Below, piece by piece: positions 26,501 through 34,606 of a stretch of DNA of 64,000 nucleotides. The stretch is from Carcharhinus amblyrhynchos. Lineage: Eukaryota. The notes under the pieces were generated by a model that saw nothing but the letters and a program-made list of their open reading frames with translations, had not been told where the DNA came from and searched no databases. Where the stretch lies: NCBI GenBank assembly GCA_965287045.1, contig OZ336903.1:1178001-1242000 (forward strand), in the 5' to 3' direction. A program made the position numbers and the translations under genes. The stretch's first letter is position 1. Every line of letters starts with the position of its first letter.

Positions 26501-27606
26501 TTGGCTGGAGGTAACAGCAGCTGCTCCGGGAGAGTGGAGATATGGTGTAATAGAGCCTGGGGCACGGTGTGTGATGATTCCTGGGATATGAACGATGCCA
26601 GTGTTGTCTGCAGACAGCTGGGCTGTGGCTCTGCTCTCGAGGCCACAGGAGGGCGCTCTTTTGGGCAGGGTACCGGTACTATCTGGCTGGATGAGGTGAA
26701 GTGCACCAGAAGCGAATCCTTTCTGTTTGACTGTCCTTCATCATCAGCTCAGTCTGACTGTGATCACAAGGAAGATAGAATCATAGAACCCTACTGTACA
26801 GAAAAAGGCCCTTCGGCCCATCGATTCTGTACCAAACATAAGCCCATCCATGCCCTACCCCCATATCCCTACATATTATACCCACTAATCACTCTAACCT
26901 ACGCATCCCTAGGCACTGACGGACAATTTCTGAGCATGGTCAATCAACCTAACCCGCAGATGTTTGGACTCTGGGAGGAAACCGGAGTACTCAGAGGAAG
27001 CCCACGCAGACACGAGGAGAACGTGCAAACTCCACACAGACAGTGACCCAAGCTGGGAATCGATCCCAGGACCCTGGAGCTGTGAAGCAGCAGTGCCGAC
27101 GTGCTGCCCAGATGTCAGTGTGATTTCCTTCGTTAAATATCCCACTGAGCGGTGCAGTTTGGGTCTGTGTGACGTTGTCTGGCCCATCTTCGCTGAATAT
27201 AATCCATGTTTTCAGATGTCTTTCTGATCAACAATGCAAGTAATTGTGGCTTTTTTTTTTACCATATTTTCACAGGTCCGGCATTATCTCCGACCGTTCT
27301 GCCCACACCTTCAGGTATGTCAGAGTAATAAATATCAATCACTATTATGGCTAATTTTACATTAGGATAAATAATTGTCACACGTTGGCATTGTCTTCAT
27401 TTTATCAATTCTTACCGACAGTCTGGGTGTTTGGATAATCCTGTATTTAAAAATATTGTGGACATTTTAACTCACAACGTCCTTGAGTATTTCATCAAGG
27501 ATATGAAGATGAAAGCACCTCCATCCCTCTGGTGATCTGCATATCACTCGGTGTCCTGTTGATCTGTGAGTTAATCGTCCTTTTGGCAGTAATGCAGAGA
27601 AGATAA
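14536..27606 (+). CDS. Gene A: CD163/WC1-like group B SRCR protein; predicted signal + 6 SRCR (+ linker + TM, stop at 27604-27606); 3' part degenerate
   Basis: Exons 14536-14581, 16883-16915, 17697-18020, 20218-20532, 21548-21862, 22180-22494, 24065-24379, 25930-26247, 27276-27314, 27500-27606 join in frame with canonical splice sites. Confidence 0.75.
16883..16915 (+). CDS. Gene A exon 2 (C)[10 protein letters not shown]
   Basis: tttcag|GC...TCAG|gtaatc, 33 nt, 1 nt different from the gene B copy. Confidence 0.85.
17697..18020 (+). CDS. Gene A SRCR domain 1 (lacks C2/C7)
   Basis: [25 protein letters not shown]...DAGVICS; ttacag/gtaaaa. Confidence 0.95.
20218..20532 (+). CDS. Gene A SRCR domain 2
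   Basis: CSGRLEIH...GTVCD...DVSVICS, 8 Cys, 315 nt, ttcag/gtgagt. Confidence 0.95.
21548..21862 (+). CDS. Gene A SRCR domain 3
   Basis: [26 protein letters not shown], 8 Cys, 315 nt. Confidence 0.95.
22180..22494 (+). CDS. Gene A SRCR domain 4 (lacks C2/C7)
   Basis: [27 protein letters not shown]...GVLCS, 315 nt. Confidence 0.95.
22933..23176 (-). mobile_element. tRNA-derived SINE (V-SINE type, cattgcagtgttaa tail variant)
   Basis: gaggaaacccacgcagacacagggagaatgtgc core; gcagcagtgctaacca head. Confidence 0.85.
24065..24379 (+). CDS. Gene A SRCR domain 5
   Basis: [30 protein letters not shown]...DVKIMCS, 315 nt. Confidence 0.95.
24694..25033 (+). mobile_element. HE1-like shark SINE
   Basis: ggtagcacagtggttagcactgctgc head, gggttcaattcc B box, tggagtttgcacattctc core, ctgcactgtagggttctatg tail. 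Confidence 0.92.
25432..25657. mobile_element. Penelope-like inverted-repeat fragment with degenerate minimal hammerhead-ribozyme motifs
   Basis: ~90-bp arms 25432-25521 and 25531-25620; cacCTGACGGaGGGGaaaaCCCCGAAAgtttgtg. Confidence 0.75.
25930..26247 (+). CDS. Gene A SRCR domain 6
   Basis: [26 protein letters not shown]...DAGVVCS, 318 nt. Confidence 0.95.
26333..26389 (+). pseudogene. Gene A linker-1 pseudoexon (donor GT>CT)
   Basis: TCAG|ctgttt vs TCAG|gtgttt in gene B (52649-52705). Confidence 0.8.
26487..27132 (+). pseudogene. Gene A SRCR7 pseudoexon: acceptor AG>CG, SINE insertion, C8>S, donor GT>TT
   Basis: Alignment to intact gene B exon 52243-52551. Confidence 0.9.
26777..27109 (-). 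mobile_element. HE1-like SINE inserted in the SRCR7 exon, candidate TSD AGAT
   Basis: atagaatcatagaaccctac tail ... gtgctgccc head; AGAT at 26773-26776 and 27110-27113. Confidence 0.93.
27276..27314 (+). CDS. Gene A linker-2 exon (G)[12 protein letters not shown]
   Basis: cacag/gtatgt intact, 39 nt. Confidence 0.75.
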
Positions 27607-27616
27607 TCAATAAAAG
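27500..27616 (+). CDS. Gene A transmembrane exon [35 protein letters not shown] (TAA 27604-27606; TCA in gene B)
   Basis: caag/gtaagg, 117 nt, ~23-aa hydrophobic stretch. Confidence 0.85.
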
Positions 27617-29363
27617 GTAAGGCCCGTTCAGATCCCTGAACCCACGCTGAGTCATGGATGTTGCTTCATACATCAGAGGGGCTTCTCTGCCAATTTACAT
27701 AGAATGACTTGAATACATTTCAAAAACAAATTAACTGAGTATTGGCCAGTAATTTATTTCAAGTCACATGAGAAATAGTAAAATATTACATATAAATGAC
27801 GGAGTTATCTACGTTCATTTTCTTGCTTCATCCACCAGTGCAGGAGATATGGAAATGGAAATATTTTTTGTTGCAATCGATTTAAAAGTTTAAACAATAA
27901 ATTGAGCTCTGATGGCCTGTACTCTCTGTTATAAGAGGAGATGGCAGCAGGGATAGTGTGAGTGTTAGTTGTGTTATTCCATTTTTTTCCTCGATTCTGG
28001 AAAGATACCAGTGGATTGGAAACACGCTAATATGGCACCCTTATACAAAAAAAAGAGAGAGAGGGCAAAAACGTGGCAAACTGTTGGCCACTTATCTCGA
28101 TCTCTGATTTGGGAAGTTGTTGCAGTCTATCATTCAGCAGGAGATAACTGATCAATGGAAAACAAAGTGGAGTTCACCAGGGCCAGCTCGATTTTATGAA
28201 GGGCAAGCTTCCTTGACAAACTTGCTAGAGATTTTTGAGGATTTAAACAACAAGGTGGATTTTGGGGATCATGTATATGTGGCATATCTGGATTATAGAG
28301 GGCATTGGAGAAGAGTAGTAGAATGTTAGGGGTTGGGCACAGAAAATTGGCTTGGAGAGAGGATTGCTTGAGTAAGAGAAATCGTAGGGTCGAGGTAAAT
28401 GGGATCTTCTTCTGCAGAGAAATTGAAGTGTAATGAGGGATGACTCAGTGTTCACTTTTTAACTGTTTACAACTGATATAACTGACCTGCGATTAGCGTC
28501 AGAGTGCAACATAGCAAGGTTCGTGGAGGATTCGAAGATGACTGGGAAAGCAGGCTCTGTTGACATTATAGATTTTACAGATGGATATTGACGGGCTAGG
28601 AGAATGGACTAGAATGTGGCATATCGATATTAATGTGAATACTTGTGAGGTTCTCCATTTTCACGAGAAAATATTGAAAGTGTAAATGATTATTTAAATG
28701 TGAAACATATTCGAATTCACTCAGTGCAGCGGGATCCGGTGTCCTTGTGCACGAATGACAGAATGTGAATATGCAGGTGCAGCGTTTTCTAACAGCGGCA
28801 AGTTGAATATTGGAATTTATTTGAAAAGAACAGCATTTTAAATATCAAGAAATGTTATTAACACTGGAGAAGGCCTTGGTGAAACCGTATCTAGAGTCTT
28901 GTGTCCAGATTTGTTCTCCATACCTGATGAAGGATGTGCTGATACTGAAGGCCGTTCAGGGGGTGTTCACCAGATTGATTCCAGGGCTGAAGGGGCTTCC
29001 ACACGAGCAGTGTTTGACTAGCTTAGGTGTGTACCCGCTGGAGCTCAAAAGAAGTAGGATCTGACTGCGGGACATAAAATGCTAAAGAGTTTGATGAGGT
29101 GGAAATTGAACAGCTATTCCCCATTTGTTGGAGAGTACACAACAGAAGCTCATAGGCCCTCTTTTTTAAGCTCCAGTGGGAAAAAACCTAAGCTATTCAA
29201 ACGGTGCTCGTGTGGTAGAGTGAGTGTAAGACGAAGTAGATCCAAAACTGTGGTGAGGGACGAATTCTCTCAGAGGTTTGTGAACCTGTGAAAAGATTCC
29301 CCGGAATGCAGGGGGACACAATCAGTCAGCAGAGTGAAGAAAGAGACAAATATGTGTCTCCAT

Positions 29364-33843: not shown

Positions 33844-33954
33844 TTTCTTCAAGCATTGACTCCTTCAATCAGATTGAGTATTACACCAGTCACAGTTTAG
33901 GAAACACAGATCCTGGACCAGAATATCCTGAAGTGAATTCTTCCTCAATTCAGG
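33844..33954 (+). pseudogene. Gene A cytoplasmic pseudoexon 2 (donor GT>GG)
   Basis: [34 protein letters not shown]|ggaggt vs |gtaggt in B. Confidence 0.8.
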
Positions 33955-34476
33955 GGAGGTGGAAGTTCACATGCGACCATGTCCTTCCGAGCCTTCTCAC
34001 TCTGTAATATCTAAAATAGCGTTTGAAATCTCCAAACGTGTACTCCATGACGTGTACACCATGATGTGTGCACCATGATGTGTACACCATGGAATGGCAG
34101 GGCCAAATGCCTCAGATATTGCAGAATGATTTGAATTACAGAAACTTTGAGTCTCAAACAATATGTTCTCATTGTTCCAAGCAATGGAAATTAGATTTTT
34201 AAAACGAAGTTCCATTTATTTCCCCTTTCTTGGTTGTTATTTGTGGACTGGTTTGTGGGATCGGTGACACATTGGGAACGGTATACATTTGAACGAAAGT
34301 TGGAAAAAAGAAACAAAATTTCGCCCAATAATCTCTATGCTCCAATCCACTGGCCTCCATGCCACAACAGATCAAAGTCTCAGCCCCGGAAATACTGCGG
34401 CAACAGACATTAAACGATATGATTCTAATTGTCCTTCATTACTAATTAAGTTCAATTCAAATCCTTTCCCTCTCAG

Positions 34477-34606
34477 CTCCTGTTTTGACAGACTCTGACG
34501 ATGCTGAGAGTGAAACCATTGACTCTGATGGGGCACTTGCTGCTGAACCGGGACCCTGACGGTATCTTCACATTGACAAGTTCCAGCGGTGATCTGGACA
34601 CTCTGG
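34477..34606 (+). pseudogene. Gene A cytoplasmic pseudoexon 3 (Y>S in GYDDA, net 2-nt deletion)
   Basis: 130 nt vs 132 nt in gene B 46920-47051. Confidence 0.8.

Follow-up and report, generated by a model that had tools for sequence, protein, structure and literature searches.

A tail-less gene in a shark cluster of WC1/CD163c-like SRCR receptors and its possible non-signalling product

Introduction

[quoted passage not shown] The same arrangement was found in a receptor cluster of the shark Carcharhinus amblyrhynchos, from which one gene is present twice in opposite orientation, as A on the plus strand and B on the minus strand, in a 64,000-nucleotide stretch of contig OZ336903.1 (positions 1,178,001 to 1,242,000; hereafter the window, whose numbering is used for all coordinates given without a contig). 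The shark genes are laid out as signal peptide (SP), exon 2, SRCR1 (up to three copies), SRCR2 to SRCR6, linker (interdomain, ID) exon, SRCR7, stalk, TM exon and tail exons C1 to C4, seven SRCR types that set them apart from the 11-domain layout of WC1. We found that gene A has lost its tail and SRCR7, and judging from its sequence we would give even chances to its still making a non-signalling protein with six SRCR domains.

WC1-type tails carry a Y-(Q/E)-(D/C/E)-(I/L) motif, which the tail of B fits (PMC2906472), and the bovine tail AVYEELD...YDDAE is paralleled by the B tail, which also contains YDDAE. As in the shark cluster, gene conversion has been suggested in some accounts of WC1. From cattle, one study reports WC1 cDNAs that lack the TM region or have a short tail (PMC2681482); unlike WC1, the truncation of A is fixed in the gene and not made by splicing.

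Paired leukocyte receptors such as KIR, Ly49, KLRC, PIR and Siglec-11/16 also resemble the shark cluster, in that they are described as clustered paralogs whose ectodomains are homogenised by conversion and whose signalling parts have diverged (sections of PMC3210942 and PMC5701461). Conversion involving a non-functional allele is among the cases described for them (PMC5701461, in part).

Open 5' exons and lost 3' exons in gene A

The following exons of A remain open.

14536..14581, plus strand: exon 1, signal peptide; intact
16883..16915, plus strand: exon 2; intact
17697..18020, plus strand: SRCR1; intact
20218..20532, plus strand: SRCR2; intact
21548..21862, plus strand: SRCR3; intact
22180..22494, plus strand: SRCR4; intact, 1% from three paralogs, with a 217-nt identical run (probably from conversion)
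24065..24379, plus strand: SRCR5; frame intact, D>Y in the VCDD motif
25930..26247, plus strand: SRCR6; intact
27276..27314, plus strand: stalk exon; open, AG/GT
27500..27616, plus strand: TM exon; open up to TAA at 27604-27606, AATAAA at 27609, AG/GT intact, 103-nt run identical to paralog g997

A preliminary description of this locus had stated that all eight exons up to SRCR6 keep open frames, GT/AG sites and cysteines. This was borne out, as the SP exon, exon 2 and SRCR1-6 are open with GT/AG sites and SRCR1-6 equal those of B in cysteine counts. Every splice site in the chain from SP through SRCR6, stalk and TM is intact (19/19, of which 15 belong to exons 1-8 and four to the stalk and TM exons), and 4/9 sites are lost in the ID, SRCR7 and C2-C4 exons, the two groups being defined post hoc. 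The damaged features were located as follows.

26333..26389, plus strand: linker (ID) exon; donor changed from GT to CT, acceptor retained, read-through meets a stop at 26512
26487..27132, plus strand: SRCR7 pseudo-exon; both splice sites lost (CG for the acceptor, TT for the donor), interrupted by a short interspersed element (SINE), body still 3% from the nearest paralog
26777..27109, strand not assigned: SINE-like repeat inside SRCR7; its first 214 nt share 90% identity with the best other copy among the 40 scored out of 4196 candidates
30920..30925, plus strand: junction of a ~1.25-kb deletion that took C1 with its YEEI from A (B 49895 to 48640 is missing in A)
33844..33954, plus strand: tail exon C2; donor GT>GG
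34477..34606, plus strand: tail exon C3; 2-nt deletion (frameshift), YDD>SDD
40228..40271, plus strand: last exon C4; 3-nt deletion, stop lost, downstream AATAAA changed to AATACA

The TAA directly after the juxtamembrane QRR, where B has TCA, is present as first described, and among the 23 paralogs on contig C34 such a stop occurs only in A. Also upheld was the statement that every cytoplasmic exon of A is deleted or damaged (C1 deleted, C2 donor GG, C3 frameshifted, C4 stop lost), with the acceptors of C2-C4 intact; among the 23 cluster genes, A alone lacks C1. The absence of signalling motifs expected of a decoy was thus found in A, with C1 deleted, YDD changed to SDD and the stop preceding the tail. 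The linker donor loss (GT in 22/22 other paralogs), the SRCR7 splice-site losses and the SINE, an old insertion, were absent from the preliminary description, and C4 lay outside its range. With the linker donor and both SRCR7 splice sites lost, the damage to A therefore begins after SRCR6 and not at the stop.

Damage biased to the 3' end is not peculiar to A. Six of the 22 other paralogs are damaged and carry 11 lesions, with 5/11 in C3 and 7/11 in SRCR7, TM or C3 together. Among them, g1285 (C34:1279621-1302099) and g1418 (C34:1401733-1425583) have a broken C3 and keep YEEI, g1480 (C34:1470320-1504077) has a stop within TM, a C3 frameshift and one exon-2 donor lost, and g997 (C34:991218-1014664) has an SRCR7 stop and a C3 frameshift; these four are candidates for shortened or secreted forms.

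It is barely credible that errors of assembly or a private haplotype account for the lesions of A. No fewer than nine lesions are independent and they vary in kind, the 1.25-kb deletion and a SINE that differs by ~10% from its best relative among them, and A-type 5' introns were found in three other DNA-like runs. In these runs, compared over window 14400-26980, the A-type introns from SRCR2 to SRCR6 differ by 0.3-0.7% (X2 and X3) and 1.4-2.9% (X1), and the A locus is therefore not peculiar to this assembly. It was also noted that X2 and X3 contigs ~99% identical to the A 5' block (window 14865-20048) have 4-8x the depth of A's later introns, and that X1 and X2 show a joint at window 20048 to a repeat. 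Depth and joint hint at extra A-like 5' copies absent from the assembly, although depth is no copy number.

Predicted products of gene A

We propose that A is an old copy that lost its tail and SRCR7 early in its history, that the bodies of its SRCR and TM exons are repeatedly reset by conversion from paralogs, and that selection would have kept exons 1-8 clear of stops, frameshifts and splice hits. Its product could be membrane-bound or secreted, and would bind family ligands without signalling, serving the cluster as a whole rather than B. By the first possible route, SRCR6 is joined to stalk, TM and stop, giving a predicted tail-less membrane protein that ends at QRR. For this route speak the coding junctions of A, which are all in phase 1, and the tolerance of SRCR-exon loss in the family: usable SRCR2 is absent from 4/22 other paralogs (partial SRCR2 matches in g817, g887, g1068 and g1285 and the second SRCR1 of g1068 were left out before paralog counts). 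By the second possible route, SRCR6 is spliced to the linker, which is read through to the stop at 26512, giving a predicted secreted protein; the 85-nt SRCR6-linker intron keeps both splice sites, which would favour this splice. A possible third outcome is that either transcript is spliced on to C3-C4 and destroyed by nonsense-mediated decay (NMD), for which the 50-nt rule is the usual guide.

The preliminary description had proposed that the AATAAA at 27609 might end the transcript early and so avoid decay. The motif is real, but the escape appears doubtful, since it is coding sequence common to 16/23 paralogs and ends 2 nt before the intact GT donor. U1 binding at a donor usually blocks cleavage there. 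A better candidate would be a second motif, at this place only in A, which could also be chance in an AT-rich intron:

27896..27901, plus strand: AATAAA, candidate early poly(A) site, 280 nt into the post-TM intron

No RNA match was listed for the A TM region, which is evidence neither way. In X19, an RNA-guessed run of another organism, A-type intron and SRCR3 sequence occurs in contigs of low depth (3-6) that differ by 2-4%; these could be pre-mRNA or DNA and were not counted towards expression. Spliced joints of exon 1 to exon 2 and exon 2 to SRCR1 in the same run were rejected as an A transcript and hold at family level only, the exon-1 contig having a paralog letter at 14563. Separately, read-through into the post-TM intron (in B, window 51727-51759, minus strand) gives a short tail in most paralogs, a possible family-wide short-tail isoform.

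Probable gene conversion and possible selection in exons 1-8

Divergence was counted against a paralog consensus, and for the introns in columns on which 80% or more of the other paralogs were in agreement. At the 4-fold sites of A exons 1-8, 5/263 differ (1.9%) compared with 8.3% in introns (p=1e-5). Because protein selection cannot lower silent divergence, this suggests that the exon bodies have been overwritten by paralogs, and we infer that the SRCR and TM exon bodies of A were reset by gene conversion. Runs identical to paralogs reach 217 nt in A exons and 136 nt in the dead SRCR7, and SRCR5 and SRCR6 lie 6-7% from their nearest paralogs.

These data bear directly on the alternative that A is a pseudogene, or recently dead, whose SRCR and TM bodies look intact through conversion from 22 neighbours as its short tail exons decay among diverged introns. 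We give this alternative rather less than an even chance, though a substantial one. It accounts for the low 4-fold divergence, which selection on the protein leaves unexplained, for the fresh body of SRCR7 and for the 3'-biased damage seen across the family. A is also the most diverged of the 23 copies in its introns (8.3% of 5' and 8.0% of 3' intron sites, others 1.9-6.8%), and stops or frameshifts in SRCR sequences in or around bovine WC1 genes are mentioned in part of an earlier study (PMC2681482).

The pseudogene reading is opposed by the lesion counts. In SP through SRCR6, no stops, frameshifts or splice hits were found against 3.2 (without indels) to 5.0 expected (P 0.042-0.007), and the expectation rises to 4.0-5.8 with stalk and TM sites added. 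It was derived from the 44 changes in A, the rate of indels in its introns (25-32 that shift the frame per 778 substitutions) and the flank rate, and it assumes that A's changes arose in A. Conversion moreover refreshed the SRCR7 body and left its splice sites unrepaired, yet none of the 15 sites in exons 1-8 is broken. For a pseudogene evolving neutrally in all coding exons, the replacement-to-silent ratio given below fits, and the missing 3-5 lesions do not. The flanks of exons 1-8 diverge little (16/377 vs 28/218, p=0.0003); this was considered as a sign of selection and rejected, because in intact paralogs the flanks are no better protected than the introns.

Several observations weigh against a retained product of A. 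The dead SRCR7 is as fresh as SP to SRCR6 (5/277 vs 44/1747 changes, Fisher p=0.67), and an intact look alone is therefore not enough for selection. Replacement changes show no deficit (0-fold 31/1144 vs 4-fold 5/263, ratio 1.44), and this ratio lies above those of all 16 intact paralogs used (0.25-1.40, pooled 0.59; p=0.04), g1418 and other damaged copies having been left out of the set, with a likelihood ratio of 5.7 for neutrality; a ratio of 1.44 could also result if diversifying selection acts on the ligand loops. The A-private counts (N19/S7 = 0.81) are compatible with both readings. Working donors absent from the assembly may account for some changes in A, which would weaken the lesion test. 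At the transcript level, the intact 85-nt SRCR6-linker intron may defeat clean skipping of the linker. The TM donor and the C2-C4 acceptors are intact, so that splicing to C3-C4 puts a junction ~140 nt past the stop, and no A-specific spliced transcript was seen in the runs compared over window 14400-26980.

The evidence for selection on the 5' exons of A is thus mixed. The preliminary description had read the contrast between open ectodomain exons and broken tail exons as continued selection on the ectodomain; the missing lesions agree with it, and the contrast loses weight through the refreshment of even the dead SRCR7. Returning to a retained product, we put forward tentatively that A may be a gene-encoded, non-signalling decoy, with tail and SRCR7 lost long ago, the frame kept by selection and the ligand-binding exons updated by conversion from ~22 signalling paralogs, so that it would track and dampen the whole family. 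If A is expressed, a cartilaginous fish would offer a control for WC1-type co-receptors that is tail-less by nature, and A would be a decoy maintained by family-wide conversion. If it is not, it would be a clean example of conversion making a pseudogene look selected, with the dead SRCR7 as internal control.

Age of the lesions in gene A

Two own-genome searches with introns of A returned nothing closer than 78-82% over the long matches. The C2-C4 exons of A differ from the family at 10/165 0-fold and 6/38 4-fold sites, about the intron rate, which points to an old tail loss, with the tail probably freed from constraint close to the origin of the A lineage. The TM exon has a single private change, the stop itself. 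Because of this and the 103-nt identity to g997, the TAA is likely young, a late event and not the first lesion, or else kept by selection against conversion.

Two further segments of A were noted. A deep segment of the SRCR1-SRCR2 intron at window 18601-18900 is matched in all 22 paralogs and lies only 2% from the nearest (possibly a regulatory element, or a hot spot of conversion), and a repeat insertion in the post-TM intron at window 29701-30300 is 99-100% identical to g979 (a young retroelement or a recent transfer).

Gene B and the question of an A-B pair

Gene B is the intact neighbour of A.

44284..61460, minus strand: gene B; intact paralog, exon 2 to C4, with its signal-peptide exon outside the window at G000:C34:1244206
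51760-51876, minus strand: B TM exon
49099-49206, minus strand: B C1 exon with YEEI

The preliminary description had cast A as a partner of B. A dedicated paired-receptor system, in which A mimics the B ectodomain and opposes the B signal, would suit two adjacent tail-to-tail genes with homologous ectodomains, one with a full tyrosine tail and the other with none, and we nevertheless hold it to be very improbable. B is never the nearest paralog of A in the 10 exons compared (SRCR1-7 included), ranking 2-21, for example 2 of 34 for SRCR1, 16 of 18 for SRCR2 and 21 of 22 for SRCR6; preferential homogenisation of the A and B ligand-binding domains was not seen, homogenisation being family-wide. 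The tail-to-tail layout is the rule in the cluster, where it is shared by 16/23 genes in 8 pairs. In classical paired receptors the activating member carries a basic TM residue, according to the relevant part of PMC3210942. Unlike these, A has no K/R/H in its TM helix for an adaptor with an immunoreceptor tyrosine-based activation motif, only the glutamate found there family-wide, and the shark family lacks a conserved immunoreceptor tyrosine-based inhibitory motif (ITIM). The B tail has one relaxed ITIM match, SEYPEV, whose Y is replaced in several paralogs, and the conserved motif is the WC1-type YEEI. At the level of sequence, B-specific pairing is contradicted and remains unsupported.

The WC1/CD163c-like cluster and related genes

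An own-genome search with the A TM exon gave 27 matches, of which 23 fall within ~2 Mb of contig C34.

G000:C34:156000-2058000: WC1/CD163c-like SRCR receptor cluster, with exon annotation of all 23 genes

The group B SRCR type has one domain per exon with 6-8 cysteines, and this is what was found. Both domains tested scored above the cut-off of the SRCR profile Pfam PF00530 (2/2; 116.8 and 94.8 bits), a glutamate lies inside the TM helix in all 23 genes, and YEEI, which matches the WC1-type motif, is present in C1 of 22/22 paralogs having that exon. WC1/CD163c-like is the best name for the shark family because the B tail motifs follow bovine WC1; B domains are 25-62% identical to WC1 domains, as pairwise identities without a tree and with some reference domains missed by the splitter. 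The 23 genes, with YEEI in all 22 that have C1, suggest that WC1-like arrays reach back to sharks. No paper on this 23-gene shark cluster was found in the literature searched, whose coverage left out most subscription journals.

Protein searches placed A and B among shark SRCR receptors named DMBT1-like or M130-like by NCBI, the closest named being from Mustelus asterias. The Mustelus models (P0058, P0083, P0234-P0251) share the exon layout and tail, with 73-95% per-domain identity to the best own-genome paralog, and some also lack SRCR2, SRCR3 or SRCR4. Among the 23 models examined, none ends at QRR, none has lost SRCR7 and kept TM, and none shares A-private residues of SRCR2-7. A protein search with the B TM region gave 8 hits among 58 candidates, and 0/5 Mustelus hits end at QRR (the C-termini of P0232 and P0233 were left out). 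A protein search with SRCR5 was dominated by long proteins from outside the sharks. P0245 was rejected as an A orthologue; it has the same linker read-through end, but keeps the donor and shares no A-private residues. P0075 and P0239 end in post-TM intron read-through.

Other related sequences were recorded in the shark genome. A second SRCR cluster (G000:C34:8522594-8795960) holds seven SRCR4-like matches at 73-75%, and the one gene examined there has three SRCR1-like repeats plus C2/C3-like exons. An orphan 5' fragment (signal peptide, exon 2 and SRCR1) and an SRCR2 fragment lie at C34:1823967-1829886 and C34:1760578-1761436, and decayed family copies were found on contigs C56 and C105 (loci L017, L025 and L026). 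Within the window, a third paralog, g1165, has its signal-peptide exon at 4459-4504 on the minus strand, head-to-head with A and ~10 kb upstream, and minisatellite-like repeats lie between the two genes.

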